The notes beneath the pieces were generated by a model. The model did not search any database. It saw nothing but the letters and a program-made list of their open reading frames with translations, and was not told the origin of the DNA. From contig NW_019217855.1 in NCBI RefSeq assembly GCF_002571385.2, forward strand, positions 755,927 to 819,926: a stretch of DNA of 64,000 nt. The letters are read 5' to 3'. Numbering within the stretch: position 1 is the stretch's first letter; every line of letters begins with the position of its first letter. This document shows, piece by piece, positions 52,704 to 61,838 of the stretch. The position numbers and the translations under genes were made by a program. Origin of the DNA: Stylophora pistillata (lineage: Eukaryota).

Positions 52704-53712
52704 CCCTTCAGAGCGAGGGCTGTCAGTGTTCTTTATAATGAGAATATCCAGGCATACTGGTGTAATCTCATTGAGATTGTCTACAGAGACCATTCAGGTT
52801 ACTGGTTTCTTGACACTTTGGAGACCTGACATAATGCGGTGCATAATGCTTCTGCAGAAAGTGGAAGTGCAATGCCCCAAGTTCCATAAGATGTGGAAAC
52901 AGAGATTACTAAAAGCAGAATGGGCCAACAAGGCTCACCTTTTTAAAGCAAACATGATGACTAAACTTGGGAAGGACCTCAACAGGATGATAAGCACATT
53001 GTGTCATACAATTCTTGGCTTTGCACTCAAAGGACAAACATTGAAAATACCTGATAACTGTTTATCTATTTGAAGACAAATTCCAAGAAATGTGTAAAGG
53101 AGATAAGTAGATCCTTCTCCAGTCAATCTTTATCCATCCCTTGTACTAATGTTTCAGGTTTATAGTTCACAAGTTAGTTTTTACTTCTCTTTGAAATTTT
53201 AAAACCAATATTTCACCAAATAGGTTATACGAAATAGAGAGGCTTTCAAGTACAGGGTGTTATTTTGATTTATCAATAAAATTGTCTAATTTGTTCACCA
53301 GAAAGTATGTAGTGAGAGGGTAGAATTCATAATTGTTTGGTTTATCCTTTCATGCTTAACCATTCCTAGGGTATCCACAGAAGAACAGTTTACGACCTTC
53401 ACATCCCATTTAACCTACTGGTTAAACCTTAGAGAAAGGTGATTGATGTTGCAAGTAATTTTATGTTTTATCAACTGTTTCATGTCATTAATCAGACACA
53501 GCTTACCAATATTAAACCAACAATATCAATTACAGTGGTTCCCTCTAGAAGGTCAACATCCTATTTTCTAGATATAGCAAAAACAAGAGGCTTACATAAC
53601 TGGTCAAACAAGTTTTAATGGGTTTTGTACAGAAACATCACAAAGTTGATGTTGAATGTTACCATTTTAACACAAACTCTTGTAAAAGTTTGACAAAGAT
53701 TTGTGATTTCTT

Positions 53713-55630
53713 CTACAGTCCCAACTTGGTTCTACGCCAGTGACGTCTCTTAGCATTGTATCTGAAACCAAACAAATGTAGGAATGGGTCAATAACCTGA
53801 ATTTGGATGCTCACAATGCAACTGTCAACCTTCACTTCAGAACTAAATTTTCTCACATGCTGAACAAGATTACTAAGGTTCTTGCTGATGTTAACTACTA
53901 TGGTAGTGAAAAGCTAGTAGGAGTCATGTCTGACAAATTCCAAGCGTTAGTAATCATTCATAACATTAAAAGCTGTTGACAATTAAATTTACTCAAATTA
54001 CAAGAATATTTCAATAGGTGAAAAACTGTGAATTTGCAGTCGGGTAGACATTAAATTTCATTCAGTAGGAAAAAAAATTCAAGTAAATAACACATCTGAG
54101 AATCCCATATCACACTGTCTGGATGCTAACCAACATGCTTCTCCTACAGATAAAGATTTCTTCTCAGATGTGGAAGTATCTTTTGTTATGTTCATGTTGA
54201 TTACTTTAAACACCCGAGAAGAGTTTGGTTTCCCCACAGGTAGCCCAAGCTCTCTATATGACCACACAAGGAACAAAATATGGCATATTGACTCCTAAGG
54301 AATTGTATGGGATTTTGTACTAGATATCCATGGAGATAGTTAAAAGTGAAAATATTCAAGAAAAATGGCTTACCTTATTCCATACATGTGTTGTTTGCTC
54401 CTGGTGTTGTTATTTTACCAATTTAACTTGATTTAAGTGATTTTTTTAATCCTTGTTTTCTCTTCTTAAAGAAAAGCAAAGGTTGGAACCATGACAGTCG
54501 ACTACCTGAGATATGGTCTCAGTGTTTGGGCCAAAACATAAAGTTAGAATGTTTCAAATCCCCTCAAACTACCCCTCTGCCATGTTCGATAATCGTCCTA
54601 GATAGCCAATGGAAGCAAAATACTCAGTCCCCAATACTCGAAGAATAATTTGCCACGAAAGTTCCATTTCATTGCCCTCAACTCGTATCGATTGAAGCTT
54701 GGATCCATAAGCTGTGCAACCAATCAACTTGCTTAATTGTTAACCGACTCCGAAGTGGGTTCACTAGGTGTTCTGGGGTCAGTTTTCAAGATGACAACTA
54801 CTTCCCCGCCCTCCCCCAGAACCTGTAAAACCTACAAACAAAACACACGCTTACAGGTCCTAGGTTGGCTATCTAGGATGATTATCGAACAAGGCAGAGG
54901 GGCAGTTTGAGGGGATTTGAAGCGTTCTAACTTTATGTTTTGGCCCAAACACTGAGACCATATCTCTGTTGTTGACCACCCTGGTTTCCAACCTTTGCTT
55001 CTCTTTAAGAAGAGAAAACCAGGATTAAAAAAATCGCTTAAATCAAGTTAAATCGGTAAAATAACGACACCAGGAGCAAACAACACACGTATGGAATAGG
55101 TTACGCCATTTTTATTGAATATTTTCTCTTGTAACCACCTTCATGGATATCTAGTAGAAAATCCCATACAAATCCTTATAAATCGATATGCCATATTGTG
55201 TTTCTTGCGCGGTTCATATAGAGAGCTTGGGCTACCTGTGTCTTCCCTTGCTAAGCTATTGGGTTTAACAAGCTTCTAACATAAGGATCGCATACTGCAC
55301 TCGCATGTATAGTTTAATAGTAACCCACCTTATGGTGTTTCCAGTCCTGAGCCTCACCCATTGAGGGATAGGCCTGTTCTGTTTCATTTTCTTGCCCAAC
55401 ACTCTCTTAATTTTGAAGCTTTTGTGGGACGGCTACAGTAAGGAAATTAGAACAACATAAACTTAACCACGGTACACCACCGTGAAATTTTGCAAAGTTA
55501 GCGCTCTCTTTGGCCATCTTGCTGCAATCGCGAGCGAATCCAGTCAATAATACTTTAATCAATGGATCTAGTGGAAGAAACCTACTTTACGTATTTCTAA
55601 ATAAGACAAATATGACTCAATGCTCACCAT
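53713..55630 (-). CDS. RPL39: 60S ribosomal protein L39 (eL39), 51 aa
   Basis: Exons 55628-55630 (ATG), 55329-55432, 53713-53761 give [51 protein letters not shown]. Pyrimidine (TOP/TCT-like) tract on minus at about 55667-55680. Confidence 0.97.
54235..55240. mobile_element. Foldback DNA transposon with about 375-bp inverted arms and CACAG...CTGTG termini, in RPL39 intron 2
   Basis: 54235-54609 is the reverse complement of 54865-55240, with a spacer of about 255 bp; no exact TSD visible. Confidence 0.85.
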
Positions 55631-55759
55631 TTTGAAAAATAGCTCGCTCACTCTTCAAGATGGCGTCTGAAAGAAAGAATTTTGGCGTGAGGGGACTGGT
55701 ATGGATCACCAATTTTTTCCCAAGAATCTTTTCCGCCGGAGCACGCCATTGTAAACAAG

Positions 55760-57258
55760 ATGTCTACCTCGGAGATAGCAGCAGCGCAGAATGCAGATTT
55801 AAGTAGAGCTCACGATGAAGAGGTTGATGTGGAGAACGGTGCTTCAAATTTGAAGCGGAAGAGAGCATCTTCGCTTGATGGTCGGCCTCGTCATCAGTGG
55901 AAGTTTTGGTGAGAGGAACCCTTTTTAAATTTACAACTGTAACTCCCTAATTATCTTCTTGGGTATGATTGTCGTCAAGGTAGATCAGAGCAGTTTTCTA
56001 TCACGAAAACTGGCCTGTCGGACCCTCTTCGGGTCAGCCAGTTTTCATGCTCGTGTTTTAACTACTTATACAGCAACGTACAAAACCGTAACTTGTACTT
56101 GCATAGTTTAAATACTGCCTTTTTGTGTAACTCGTTGATTCAGTTCCATGAAGCGCAGTGCGTGCCTTAGGGAAAGGATCTTTGTGAACGAAAAAAAAAA
56201 AATGAAATAGTCTGCAGTCCGTTAAGAACACACTTTTTATTGGTTTACCACCCACCCCTCTGGCCAACCATATCTAACTTTGGTCTTGTTTTAGGCTCTT
56301 GAGGAATTATGCTCATTCACAAGGAGGCATGACGTTGTTTAATGAAATTGTTGAACATGCTGACAAAGAGAAAGACAGCTTGCGACTGGAAACCTCTGCA
56401 AATCCTAAACTTGTTGGTGACCTCATCAGTGCTTTGTGGGGTGATAAAGTCAAGAAAGTCAGAAGAGGACAAAGAATCGACAGAAAATACTGTGTGCTGA
56501 ATCTTATTCGAAAACAAGGACAAACTGTGCAGCCCCCAGACTATGATGTTACAAATGATTTTCAGCAGTTGGCTAAAAATGATACATTTCAATTACCAAT
56601 AGGTTGGTATAAGGTTGTGGACAATCCTTGTAGAATTAGTTTTGTTCATCCTGAGCCTTTGGAATTTGGAAACCAGCGGATTTATAAAGAGATAGTGATG
56701 GAATTATCTCCAGAGAAAAATGTATCTTTCATTGTCAAGTCTCATTCATGTGAGCTCCATTTGTCCACCCTGAATGTTGAAAGAATTGTTAAAGATTTGA
56801 CTGTTAGTGAAAAAACTGAGGTTGTTTTGGATTTTGTAAACACTTCTAAGTTATGTCTGGGGTGCATTCTTCCTGAAGATGACTCAATTAGGTCTCTAAT
56901 ACCACATCAAACTGGAGTCCTTAAAACGTTAAACAACAGTGAAGTTCTAACACAGAATAGAGCTTTTTCTTCAAAGTGTCAGTTGTTTGTCTGTTATGCT
57001 GGAAAACAATGTTCAAAGTGCAGTGGAGTCTCAAGAACTTACAAGAGAAGGAAAGGTAGAAGAGAAACAGGGGAATCCTTTCACAAGCACTGCAACAAAA
57101 GGTATCTTACAAAAGATGAAATATTCCAACAGTTGCAAGAGCAGAGAAAATTGAACAGGAAGCATGATCAAGAAAAAGAAGACGATCAAAGTCCAGGAAG
57201 TGAGGATGGTGAAAGCAATACAAGCGATGATTCTGGCACGGAAGAGGAGAAAGATTGA
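55760..57258 (+). CDS. Uncharacterised 370-aa protein: NLS, RFX-type winged-helix-like domain, Cys cluster, acidic tail
   Basis: Exon 55760-55908 (MSTSEIA...LKRKR...WKFW) splices in phase 2 to 56295-57258. The joined sequence WLLRNY...VGDLISALWGDKVKKVRRGQRIDRKYCVLNL parallels the RFX DBD pattern WLLDNY...FGKLIRSVF.GLRTRRLGTRGNSKYHY.GL. Confidence 0.75.
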
Positions 57259-57789
57259 CTTGAAAGTTTAAAATAAGGCTTACCATTTTGAACTTCATGT
57301 GACCATCAGTGTAGGGATTTTTTGTTTGGGTTGGAAAAATGGTACACATGATTTTGATTTTGTTTGCGACTGTTTTGGATAGGACATGACAGGACAGAAA
57401 CTGAGGGTGCTGTAAGTACCTCCCGTTGTCCCCCATAAATCCTTTATAAAATTTTCTAAGGATTTTTGAGCGAATATATGAGGTACTCAAAGTGTGTACA
57501 GCTTCTGTCCTGTCTTGGATTGAGGAGGCCTGGGTGGAATTCTCGAAAGCCAACTAGGTGTTAGAAAAAAATAGTGACTAGATTGGCAGCAGAAGTTGCT
57601 AATTGGTGTGTTGAGTCAACAGTAATGTTGTAATGTAGTAGAAAGAATCTTATATTGATTACTGATGAACTTTGAACTTTTACAAAATTGATTATGTACC
57701 CCCTGAGAGGCTCCATTTTGTGTTCAATTCCTTAATTTTTTTTTTAAATTGAAATTATGAGTAAAGGAAAACAATACAGGCTTCTTTCA

Positions 57790-57970
57790 CTGGCAAGGAT
57801 CATACCTTAACTTAATTTCCATCCACAGGTGAACTTTAATGTATTTCATTAAAATTATAATCAGATCCCTCTATGGGGAACAAGTTCCCTTTATCAGGAC
57901 ACATGGGTTTAAATCCTGTCAAAGCCTGAATTTTTTTCCAGGCCTCTTCTCTGGAACTGCTTAAATTGCA
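57790..57970 (+). repeat. Degenerate relative of the tRNA-containing 251-bp repeat family
   Basis: ATGGGTTTAAATCCTGTCAAAGCCTGAATTTTTTTCCAGGC...CTGCTTAAATTGC matches the T-arm/terminator/hairpin part of the unit. Confidence 0.5.
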
Positions 57971-59128
57971 AGCCTTTCTACAAGTATTGCAAAACAATGT
58001 TGTTAAAAAATGTGAACAAACCAAGACAACCAGACACTTAGATGAAAGAACAAATGAGACTGCCCTGAGAAAGAGGAAGAACTGCTTTTTTCAGAGGCCG
58101 TGTTTTACAAGCAAAATTCAAATTTCTGTGCAGACAAATAAAGCCAGTTTCTAAATAAATAGCATTAAAAGCAAGACGTGGGACAAACTGCTTGAGGTTA
58201 TTTCCAGAATAAAAATAATCAATCAACATTGACGGATCGTCTGATGAGATAGCTTTATCCGTCTAATATTGATCAACATAAGAGGCACGGTCCAATTATG
58301 TGCATTGAGACATTTTTACCCAATTAAGGAGGCTATGGCATGTTTTTTTATACCATTCCGTTTGATTTGAGTGCTTTTGTCCATTTCAAACTTTCTGACT
58401 GATTTCAGTCTTATTTTGAATGCTATTGTTTGTTTTTGGCTCCTTTTGTGTGCCTGTGGACAAAAGTGCCCGGCTTTGGACCTCATCGTCCAATTTCATA
58501 TGTTCTATCTGTGAATAATTCTGTTTGATTCTACATATTTTTGTATTATTTTATTTCCCATCTTTTCTTGAAAAGGATAGTTTCATGGAGGGACAATGTA
58601 ACTAAGCATAGGCCATTATAAGAATTGTTTTAACTGTAGAGAGGGTCTAATGATAACTTCCCTGCAGATCGAAACTAAGAAAACCAAACTCAGTAAACCC
58701 AAGTTAAGCCGAATTTTTTTTCCAGTGACGTCAGTACCTTTGCGTGACGCACTCAAAGCTGACGCTTCTCCCCAGAGGCTAAAAAGAAAGAGCGAGAGAG
58801 CTTGCGGTAAAGGAATTATTGTTCGGCTAAATATGGGAATAGAAAATCAACGTTACCATCACCTTGCGCTATCCTAATACGCCGATTAATTCGAAGCTTC
58901 AACCTCCCCCCCAGGCAACCATGGCGCATTTGATTGTTGTCTGTTTCCGGGGGTGGGGAATTTGAGCCTTGACTGGGTGGGATAGGGTATTTGAGCCGGG
59001 AATGTTAAATCTTTCCAGCGTGTTAAAATTGTCTCATCCACATAGCAATATCAAAGAAAAAAAAAACAATTTTTGGGCGCAAAGGTTGAACGTAGCAAGT
59101 TTTTCAAGGAAACTGCAAATCTCAAGGA

Positions 59129-61838
59129 CGTAAAGACAGCAGAGTGACAATAACTCTCAAAAAAGAAACAACAACTTTGAGTTTAAATTTACAAGACATG
59201 TTTCGACATTCTTATGTCATCTTCAGTTGCAAATGAGCATTTAACTGTTGTACATTTGAATTTAAATTAATCAATTAATTACTGGTTCTCAACCAGCCAG
59301 GTTTTATGGGCTACCTAAAATGCACAAGGCTCGGCAGCCTAATGAAACACCTCCTTTTCGACCCATAGTATCTTCAATAGGTACCTACAATTACAATTTA
59401 TCTAAGTTCCTTTGTAATCTTCTAGAGCCACATGTCCCGCGTGAATACAACGTCCGCGACACGTTTTCTTTTGTACATGAAATCAACCAGTTATCAACCT
59501 CAGGGAAGTTCATGGTATCTTTCGATGTTGAGAGTCTGTTCACTAGTATACCTCTTGATGAATGTATTGATCTGGCGATCAGATACATTTATCAAGGTAA
59601 CCCTGGTCTTAAGATAAACGCCGCTGACCTAAAAACGCTTTTTACCTTCGCAACAGCTGAGACTGGTTTCTTGTTTAAGGGTGTGTTTTATGATCAAATA
59701 GATGGGGTTGCCATGGGGTCCCCACTTGCTCCAGTACTTGCAAACCTCTTTATGGGACATCATGAAAAAAACTGGCTAGATAACTATTCATTCTCTGAAG
59801 TTCTGTTCTACAGACGCTATGTTGATGACACCTTTTGTTTGTTCAATAGCGAGGAGGACGCGCTCGTGTTCTTTGATTATATCAACGCCAGGCATCCTAG
59901 TATTCGTTTCACAATGGAAAAGGAAATTGATAAGAAATTATCGTTTCTAGACATATTGTTAGACAACAATCATACATCCATCGTCACTAGTGTATATCGC
60001 AAGAAGACGTTTACTGGCCTTCTTACTAATTATTTCAGCTTCGCCCCTTTGATTTACAAATTAGGTTTAGTCAGAACGTTGATTGACAGAGCATACAAGA
60101 TCAATAATTCCTGGGTTGGTTTTCATCTGGATGTCAAGAAACTTATTTTCNNNNNNNNNNNNNNNNNNNNNNNNNNNNNNNNNNNNNNNNNNNNNNNNNN
60201 NNNNNNNNNNNNNNNNNNNNNNNNNNNNNNNNNNNNNNNNNNNNNNNNNNNNNNNNNNNNNNNNNNNNNNNNNNNNNNNNNNNNNNNNNNNNNNNNNNNN
60301 NNNNNNNNNNNNNNNNNNNNNNNNNNNNNNNNNNNNNNNNNNNNNNNNNNNNNNNNNNNNNNNNNNNNNNNNATTGATCTGGCGATCAGATACATTTATC
60401 AAGGTAACCCTGGTCTTAAGATAAACGCCGCTGACCTAAAAACGCTTTTTACCTTCGCAACAGCTGAGACTGGTTTCTTGTTTAAGGGTGTGTTTTATGA
60501 TCAAATAGATGGGGTTGCCATGGGGTCCCCACTTGCTCCAGTACTTGCAAACCTCTTTATGGGACATCATGAAAAAAACTGGCTAGATAACTATTCATTC
60601 TCTGAAGTTCTGTTCTACAGACGCTATGTTGATGACACCTTTTGTTTGTTCAATAGCGAGGAGGACGCGCTCGTGTTCTTTGATTATATCAACGCCAGGC
60701 ATCCTAGTATTCGTTTCACAATGGAAAAGGAAATTGATAAGAAATTATCGTTTCTAGACATATTGTTAGACAACAATCATACATCCATCGTCACTAGTGT
60801 ATATCGCAAGAAGACGTTTACTGGCCTTCTTACTAATTATTTCAGCTTCGCCCCTTTGATTTACAAATTAGGTTTAGTCAGAACGTTGATTGACAGAGCA
60901 TACAAGATCAATAATTCCTGGGTTGGTTTTCATCTGGATGTCAAGAAACTTATTTTCTTGCTACGGAAAAATTGTTTTCCATCTTGGGTCATAGACAAGA
61001 TCATTTACAGGTATCTAGCGAAGAAAAAGAATCCTCCTACTGGGCAGAACGCCTCTTCTAACTCCGGTAAACCTTCTGCGCACTATTATAAACTTCCCTA
61101 CGTTGGTCGGTTTTCGAACATCGCTCAGACTAAGTTAAGACAACTACTCAAACGTTATTGTAGAACTGATTTAGATATTAAGTTAGTCTTCAGTACGTTT
61201 AAACTCAGAAACATGTTCAGTGTGAAAGATTCAGTACCGCTGGGTCTACGTTCGCGTGTCATATATAAATTTTCATGTGCTGGCTGTAATGTCAGTTATA
61301 TTGGTGAGACCACTCGCCACATTTGTACACGAGTTCGTGAGCACCTCTTGTCGGACAAAACTTCGCATATTTACAAGCACCTGCAATCATCAAGGGCCTG
61401 TCTTGACTCTTGTGATACTGAATGTTTCACGATCTTAGATTCTGCCCCTTCAAAATACCAAATTAAGATCAAAGAGGCATTGCATATTAAGTGGGAAAAA
61501 CCTATCCTTAATCAGCAATTGAAACATCTAGAATTGTCTCTTTCCTTTTAATGATGTTGTTCCTTGGTCTTTTAATTTATTTTTATTATTATTACATTTA
61601 TTTATTTATTTTTTATTTATCTATTTATTTTTTGATCTAGTCAAGCGCTCGCTATTTACATCTTTCGCGTTTTTAACATTCAAATGTAACGTAAGCACTG
61701 ACACGTAGTTTGTAACGTACCCTTATTTAAATTCAAATGTACAACAGTTAAATGCTCATTTGCAACTGAAAATGACATGAGAATGTCGAAACATGTCTTG
61801 TAAATTTAAACTCAAAGTTGTTGTTTCTTTTTTGAGAG
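59129..61838 (+). mobile_element. Penelope-like retroelement (Penelope/Poseidon type), 5'-truncated, with an inverted pLTR
   Basis: RT motifs FYGLPKMHK, RPIVS, SFDVESLFT, QIDGVAMGSPL, RYVDD; GIY-YIG VIYKFSCAGCNVSYIGET...RVREH...KIKEALHI (ORF ends 61551). 59154-59267 is the inverse of 61725-61838. TSD AAATCTCAAGGA at 59117-59128 and 61839-61850. Confidence 0.95.
59190..59231 (-). ncRNA. Minimal type I hammerhead ribozyme in the Penelope pLTR (second copy 61761-61802 +, core mutated)
   Basis: TGCAA-CTGAAGA-TGAC ATAAGAAT GTC-GAAA-CATG-TC-TTGTA: CUGANGA and GAAA cores, stems I and II, palindromic ACATGT stem III. Confidence 0.8.

Follow-up and report, generated by a model that had tools for sequence, protein, structure and literature searches.

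Transposases of the P superfamily have so far been described as THAP proteins, and RFX domains as domains of host transcription factors. In Drosophila, P neogenes keep the DNA-binding part of the transposase without the catalytic part. The THAP domain is described as present in all known P transposases (PMC1562414). Long ends and 7-bp duplications characterize Galileo, a member of the P superfamily (PMC4168063); the site bound by its THAP domain lies about 70 bp into the end (PMC3688188). The KP repressor of Drosophila is a protein of 207 aa consisting of the P-transposase DNA-binding domain and part of the coil, with no core (PMC7776569). Transposase DNA-binding domains are known to have been domesticated (PMC10027918). 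Membership of the RFX family has been defined by at least 40% identity and nine contact residues, with the ARID2-like domains left out (PMC2873420), and in RFX factors the wing reads the major groove and helix 3 the minor groove (PMC2533330, PMC4333399). In listings of the openly accessible literature, neither an RFX-type domain on a P transposase nor a host gene derived from one was found, and no listed paper joined RFX, THAP, transposase, and DNA transposon.

The window analyzed here is a stretch of 64,000 nucleotides from Stylophora pistillata. It carries the gene LOC111325463, which is very probably a domesticated fragment of a P-type transposase lineage with an RFX-type domain in place of THAP (Table 1). 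The two exons joined encode 370 aa with 0 internal stops, and this product (P0012) is identical letter for letter to the uncharacterized protein XP_022785009.1 of S. pistillata. The initial annotation had described an intact reading frame with an intron, starting about 130 bp from the ATG of RPL39; this is what was found, with a measured distance of 129 bp to the RPL39 ATG at 55631 on the minus strand, and all motifs it quoted are present in the spliced product. The splice junction 55908/56295, for which it had proposed a check by RNA-seq, is contained in RNA contigs of 3/3 RNA or RNA-guessed runs from three studies and is absent from the one DNA-like run examined. Exon 2 is covered in four further runs, and the intron stretch 56012-56168 had no coverage in the first set of runs. 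The statement that the RFX-like motif appears only after splicing holds for the first helix, but most of the domain is readable in the unspliced exon 2. The KRKR patch of exon 1 is a possible nuclear signal.

Table 1. Features of the LOC111325463 locus and its surroundings, in window coordinates.
Feature	Position	Strand	Basis or remark
Spliced gene	41900-49000	-	Pfam: no match in 5/5 fragments
IFTAP	49700-53446	+	Pfam PF17722; spliced; 2.3 kb from LOC111325463
RPL39, three exons	53713..55631	-	Pfam Ribosomal_L39; both introns spliced; head to head with LOC111325463
MITE, 1006 bp, nested inverted repeats	54235..55240	.	in RPL39 intron 2
Inter-ATG stretch, 128 bp	55632..55759	.	two YY1-like words; no X-box-like site
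Exon 1, coding	55760..55908	+	low-confidence N-terminus, basic KRKR patch, first helix of winged helix
RFX-type winged helix (predicted), residues 40-125, pI about 10	55877..56520 (intron inside)	+	structure match, profile
Intron, GT..AG, phase 2	55909..56294	+	RNA junction
Exon 2, coding through stop codon	56295..57258	+	
RWD/UBC-like alpha-beta domain, residues 130-237	56533..56856	+	Z 6-7.5; hhalign 98.8%
Four cysteines C237, C278, C289, C292	56854..57021	+	invariant in 13/13 coreless rows
NKRYL motif and shortened coil	57094..57186	+	transposases run on from here to W..QQ..RWHP, HTH, RNase H
Acidic disordered tail, in place of transposase core	57163..57255	+	model and alignment
3' untranslated part	57259..58178	+	RNA contigs; contig ends fall between 58098 and 58348

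RNA contigs cover 55751-58178, and since they extend to 58178 with no further exon, no core-coding exon follows. No transposase core was found within 16.6 kb downstream or 11.7 kb upstream of the gene by a search that recovered 5/5 core exons at a control locus, and of the 80 inverted pairs in 50-62 kb the 5 longest include none that flanks the gene, as the initial annotation had noted of core and ends alike. LOC111325463 has one DNA match in the genome, and is thus a single-copy gene. It is not an active P-superfamily transposase: the HTH, the RNase H core, and the GTP-binding insertion are all absent. Because of the 128-bp spacing between the start codons, 55632-55759 is likely to be a two-way promoter shared with RPL39; it contains two YY1-like words. 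RNA contigs in several runs also cover 53734-54343, a part of RPL39 intron 2 reaching up to the MITE, which represents either unspliced RNA or a separate transcript.

Pfam recognized nothing in exon 2 or in the whole LOC111325463 protein, and the description of its parts comes from an AlphaFold2 model (pLDDT 87.7) based on an alignment of 114 rows and from family profiles. Residues 40-125 are predicted to form an RFX-type winged helix. Among 48,161 chains, RFX5 (VIA Z 13.5, rmsd 1.3, 82 aligned) and RFX1 (VIA Z 11.7, rmsd 1.4, 76 aligned) occupy ranks 1-2, ahead of the phage P4 origin-binding domain (Z 8.0). They are also ranks 1-2 in Foldseek (E 1.6e-3 and 5.3e-3), and the family profile against 177,635 PDB sequences gives RFX1 and RFX5 on top (E 3.5e-6 and 5.1e-6). 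The parallel with the RFX DNA-binding domain drawn in the initial annotation is therefore upheld by structure and profile searches, but not by the Pfam model it had named: PF02257 had no match above the cut-off in exon 2 or the whole protein, and weak matches in only 4/114 family rows (E up to 0.1, best 3.8e-4). A PDB search with a small alignment yielded only Hakai, with E 0.2-0.3. The ESM Atlas contained no usable match for P0012; for the transposon-type protein P0066 the matches were one cluster with no name (0.95) and clusters of P elements (0.78-0.85), which are leads only.

The RWD/UBC-like matches of the next domain, at Z 6-7.5, lie under 8; they indicate a common arrangement only and say nothing of function. 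The four cysteines are found in 87/90, 72/81, 71/77, and 75/78 of the other rows, respectively, and likely constitute a zinc site, as predicted from this conservation; the Cys region had no clear fold match within the whole-protein model. The coil that follows is reduced to about 25 residues.

A profile search of 1.84 billion representatives revealed 364 related clusters at 50% identity, with hits in stony corals and a sea anemone; one relative comes from the sea anemone Actinostola. Among 147 newly listed relatives, 95 extend to the NKRYL region, and 65 of these 95 carry a post-coil transposase segment ending in W..QQ..RWHP (49/79 without the training rows). This segment is present in 0/12 coreless proteins. 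No longer full-length proteins were found among the relatives, which is weak evidence. The metagenome locus L061 encodes the winged helix, the RWD-like domain, the Cys part, and a coil exon, followed by five core exons. These five exons align in order with the HTH, RNase H, and GTP-binding parts of the THAP-type P (THAP-P) transposases of the S. pistillata genome with 49.5 bits, against 4.9 for the best of 500 shuffles, the five pieces having been picked by eye. The core motifs of the L061 lineage follow in the order HTH, RNase H acidic residues, D(2)H, and GTP-binding insertion, in an alignment that ends before the third acidic residue. One L061 core exon finds a THAP-P transposase genome-wide with E 3e-4; with Pfam, single short core exons of relatives were recognized in 0/7 cases. 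In the THAP-P reference, L021, THAP and TNP-like RNase H are both above Pfam cut-offs.

The front part of the protein is linked to the same transposases. The THAP-P profile matches the LOC111325463 protein in the RWD/Cys region (E 0.006) and four orthologue ORFs (E 1.7e-5 to 0.25); reversed controls gave nothing below E 1. A comparison of the window family profile with the THAP-P profile gave 98.8% in an alignment that includes post-coil columns absent from LOC111325463, and the match with E 0.006 is the cleaner test; an earlier comparison of the profile with a single THAP-P sequence had reached a probability of 20% only. The domain after THAP in the THAP-P model, of which residues 1-90 alone were used (pLDDT 44.5 overall), folds to the same RWD-like match set, so that an RWD-like domain is common to the LOC111325463 protein and the THAP-type P transposases of the same genome. 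In L021, L034, L044, L047, L049, and others, an RWD-like domain and a Cys cluster with no Pfam name are located between THAP and the coil. Residues 130-345 are thus homologous to the region preceding the HTH in P transposases, and the proposed link of the Cys/NKRYL part to P-element/THAP9-like proteins is substantiated.

In L061 and L002, the RFX-like domain occupies the usual place of THAP. No THAP match was obtained in the L061 or L002 ORFs, a search that leaves out the short first exons of elements, and THAP is absent among the 25 families listed for the 114 rows. The intron within the winged helix is at the same position in the orthologue loci L054-L057 and L060 and in the transposon copy L002. 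The initial annotation had seen the joining of an RFX-like helix to a Cys cluster as a property of this gene, but transposases of the lineage already have both, with the same intron position. Because of the RWD/Cys profile match, the profile-profile match, and the common RWD-like fold set, RFX-type and THAP-type transposases share one chassis and differ in the first domain. An RFX-type domain is thus in use throughout a large P lineage of cnidarians, whose front end corals seem to have retained as a gene of their own.

The RFX-type P family is found in the S. pistillata genome itself. Copies with 86-89% protein identity to L002 are present on six other contigs, and L065 and L067 have decayed or rearranged cores. 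The inverted end, up to 722 bp long, is continuous with the first (5') coding exon in L010, L011, and L014. Exact 7-bp target duplications flank 5/6 scorable copies, four further pairs having N or one end only, and no complete element with both ends was seen among the copies examined. A 322-bp piece of the end has 509 candidates in the genome; the 40 scored are 98-100% identical, which indicates that the family moved recently. The LOC111325463 protein is about 30% identical to this active family. The MITE lies 0.5 kb upstream of the gene. In its 22-bp end, 20/22 positions agree with the end of the RFX-type P family; its flanking 7-mers match at 5/7 positions only. Its very high depth in the DNA-like run points to many copies.

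Several further sequences were observed around these elements. The inverted ends of this young family contain, at 51-60 bp, a 10-bp palindrome similar to an X-box with no spacer (L014:779-838 and 25 other ends); it is expected by chance about 0.06 times per 100 nt, is absent from the MITE in the window, and is regarded as a lead only. In L061:348-780, upstream of the transposase gene, tandem 5' repeats contain a recurring 10-bp word; these are candidate binding sites. L079 has a 20-bp transposon end of the family followed by tRNA-like sequence, as recognized by eye, and may be a SINE-like insertion or a different non-autonomous family. PIF1-like helicase ORFs (L005:15-1208 and L011:1616-3136, the latter PF05970) lie a short distance from two decayed family copies, in convergent orientation, and were not accepted as parts of the element.

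The 13 coreless, acidic-tailed rows constitute one branch against 44 others with an SH-aLRT of 100, in a quick tree in which some rows are near copies. Their frame is kept open over 11 clusters down to 41% identity (41-98% in corals), and spliced transcripts are also present in a distant relative (L058, L059). The dN/dS between LOC111325463 and six relatives is 0.26-0.35, with dS above 1, and three unsaturated pairs give 0.35-0.37; the upper bound is below 0.65 in every one of these comparisons. Over 21 pairs, dN/dS is 0.10-0.37 in 18, 0.43 and 0.66 in two very close pairs whose intervals include 1, and undefined in one. A coreless gene cannot copy itself, and the constraint is therefore most simply attributed to host selection. 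The proposal of a domesticated transposon-derived protein in the initial annotation is well borne out by the single copy, the coreless clade, and the dN/dS near 0.3.

Selection is uneven along the protein. In close pairs, the pN/pS of the winged helix is 1.17, 0.97, and 0.84, against 0.18-0.38 in the RWD and Cys parts (Fisher p 0.006, 0.013, and 0.43, the pairs sharing branches). In one transposon pair, the pN/pS of the winged helix is 0.30. Thus, the dN/dS check that had been proposed finds purifying selection overall, but not, in close pairs, over the winged helix, which is the least constrained part of the protein. Frameshifted copies with 86% DNA identity (L060, L064) exist in relatives. 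The orthologue contigs, 1.9-3.2 kb long, end before any neighbor gene, and a query with 55001-56300 had no match there.

Other proteins of the alignment are truncated as well. P0142 and P0166 have an acidic tail and no transposase segment, and form their own long branch (support 100) far from the clade of LOC111325463; on this placement they are possibly an independent domestication. P0141/P0183/P0125 and P0067/P0068 also end near the coil. Two coreless paralogues are found on contigs of equal length in both P0004/P0005 and P0032/P0034, which suggests a tandem pair in one coral.

The preferred reading of LOC111325463, which is held tentatively and at a little under even odds, is that of a single-copy, coreless P-transposase fragment with an RFX-type winged helix, domesticated in stony corals as a non-cutting, DNA-binding brake on transposons. 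If the domesticated origin is accepted, a repressor role is about an even bet. A truncated insertion would have captured the RPL39 promoter and gained broad expression, and the basic wing would bind DNA in the manner of RFX. The protein could then occupy transposon ends or poison transposase assemblies, repressing like KP of Drosophila, and the host would have kept it because it blocks these ends or complexes. Such a role is favored by a layout like that of KP, by the abundant and young ends of the RFX-type P family in this genome and by wing residues kept across the coreless rows (K/R106 12/12, G108 12/12, R110 13/13). The loss of the helix-3 lysine in 13/13 coreless rows (K or R in 45/84 other rows) and P0006, which is short of 6 wing residues, argue against it, and at about 30% identity to the active family the protein may recognize different sites. 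If the target kept moving, both the rapid change of the winged helix and the turnover of the gene would be explained. An arms race would be consistent with this rapid change and with the copies that are duplicated or broken in relatives; simple relaxation would account for the rapid change equally well.

Nearly as likely as the repressor is an adaptor of host transcription or chromatin, a distinct possibility that keeps the same domesticated origin and dispenses with transposon control, as in THAP-only animal proteins. Partners would be bound through the RWD and zinc parts and histones or co-activators contacted through the acidic tail, with the winged helix holding DNA loosely. This agrees with the constraint seen in the RWD and Cys parts, with NKRYL invariant or nearly so in 13/13 coreless rows, and with the long persistence of the gene over corals, its housekeeping neighbor, and its low identity to the currently active family. 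Many THAP genes are likewise host factors (PMC10027918). However, a domain that reads a fixed set of sites in the host should be under constraint, and here it changes faster than any other part; broken duplicates also occur in relatives.

Much less probable is a transposon relic with no function under selection, which owes its transcription only to an insertion next to the RPL39 promoter. The near-neutral winged helix in close pairs and the frameshifted L060 and L064 are what a relic would leave. Against this, the frame is open in 11 clusters down to 41% identity, where synonymous sites are near saturation, dN/dS is near 0.3 with no self-copying core, the coreless forms are a single clade, and the distant relative also has spliced transcripts, whereas breaks or rearrangements mark the other transposon copies of the genome.

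The relation to RFX factors and to ciliary genes was considered from the residues of the domain and from the neighborhood. Identity to RFX domains is 16-28% (25-26% for RFX1, 16-18% for RFX5, and 20/72 for a host RFX exon). The DNA-contact residues of RFX include R58, G60, R62, Y67, and K45. The LOC111325463 protein keeps the positions matching RFX1 R58, G60, R62, K66, and Y67, the last of which is lost in orthologues, and it has Asp at the position of RFX1 K45. K45 (numbered as in the 1dp7 chain) is the helix-3 lysine, which contacts DNA. Canonical RFX genes exist in this genome, with 8 exon matches over the cut-off.

The initial annotation had placed the gene next to two ciliary genes, a class normally regulated by RFX. 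IFTAP is confirmed by Pfam; the other gene had no Pfam match and is a putative DNAI7/CASC1-like gene. IFTAP is head to head with this minus-strand gene and tail to tail with RPL39. No X-box-like site was found in 55240-55760. The two best X-box-like sites of the window, at 9000 and at 47632 (in an intron of the minus-strand gene), were set aside as neither ties to LOC111325463. With this result and the canonical RFX genes, the suggested link to ciliary neighbors is not retained.

Other observations were made in the same region. At the IFTAP junction 51838-52105, RNA contigs of three runs have 5 extra letters, and over 52838-53357 contigs of the same three runs differ from the assembly at many sites; a micro-exon, an allele, or an assembly difference would account for these. 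A Cor1/SYCP3-like gene is located at about 36.6-38.0 kb. Downstream of LOC111325463, a reverse-transcriptase ORF (59266-61548, RVT_1), which we take to be Penelope-like, lies in 59154-61838 with an assembly gap, an apparent duplication, and flanking 114-bp inverted repeats.

The protein is not, by its sequence, an RFX factor, because it falls short of the 40% identity that PMC2873420 requires, and the non-canonical RFX family proposed earlier, at 25-28%, is dismissed on the same ground. X-box binding and a share in the regulation of ciliary genes, its neighbors among them, make up the least probable reading of all, despite the nearest solved folds, the kept wing positions, and IFTAP 2.3 kb away: besides the identity, PF02257 matches only 4/114 family rows weakly, the helix-3 lysine is lost and the Y67 position not kept in orthologues, the genome owns RFX genes, and RPL39 stands between the gene and IFTAP, a transcription factor having no need to adjoin its targets.

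The preferred reading, a domesticated brake on transposons, would add a DNA-binding class to transposon-derived regulators, and one genome offers a testable pair, in which a host protein stands beside a young family of MITEs whose ends are defined. A wider and improbable extension is that the RFX-type winged helix is a mobile end-binding module of cnidarian P elements, swappable with THAP, which would have been tamed repeatedly by a cut in the coil and an acidic tail (the clade of LOC111325463 and P0142/P0166). The young MITEs, hundreds in number, bear an X-box-like palindrome 51-60 bp from each end. If this reading holds, RFX factors and these proteins could compete for one dispersed set of MITE sites, and true RFX factors may descend from such a transposase domain; the question raised is the direction in which the RFX domain moved between transposons and hosts.

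Compared with RFX factors (PF02257; RFX1 1dp7, RFX5 8zjr), the LOC111325463 protein has the same winged-helix fold, basic wing, and R-x-G-x-R spacing. Unlike them, it is only 16-28% identical, has lost the helix-3 lysine, lacks the B, C, and dimerization domains, and has transposase-derived modules behind the winged helix. The RFX-like domains of ARID2 and of choanoflagellate cRFX3 are similar to it in standing at under 30% identity outside the RFX family (PMC2873420), but the protein has no ARID or other remodeler domain. With P, Galileo, and THAP9 (PF12017, PF21787), its relatives share the core motifs in the same order and long ends starting with CA, with 7-bp duplications like Galileo; in contrast, an RFX-type domain replaces THAP, and LOC111325463 is coreless. 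THAP1-11, ZBED, and CENPB likewise kept the transposase DNA-binding part without the catalytic part (PMC10027918), but none of the six families in that paper has an RFX-type winged helix, and "rfx" and "winged" occur there 0 times. The closest parallels are the KP and 66-kDa repressors, which have an N-terminal DNA-binding domain and a partial coil with no working catalytic core (PMC7776569). KP carries THAP and is produced from mobile copies with deletions (PMC7776569), whereas LOC111325463 is a fixed single copy in which an RFX-type winged helix is followed by an RWD-like and Cys module and by an acidic tail.
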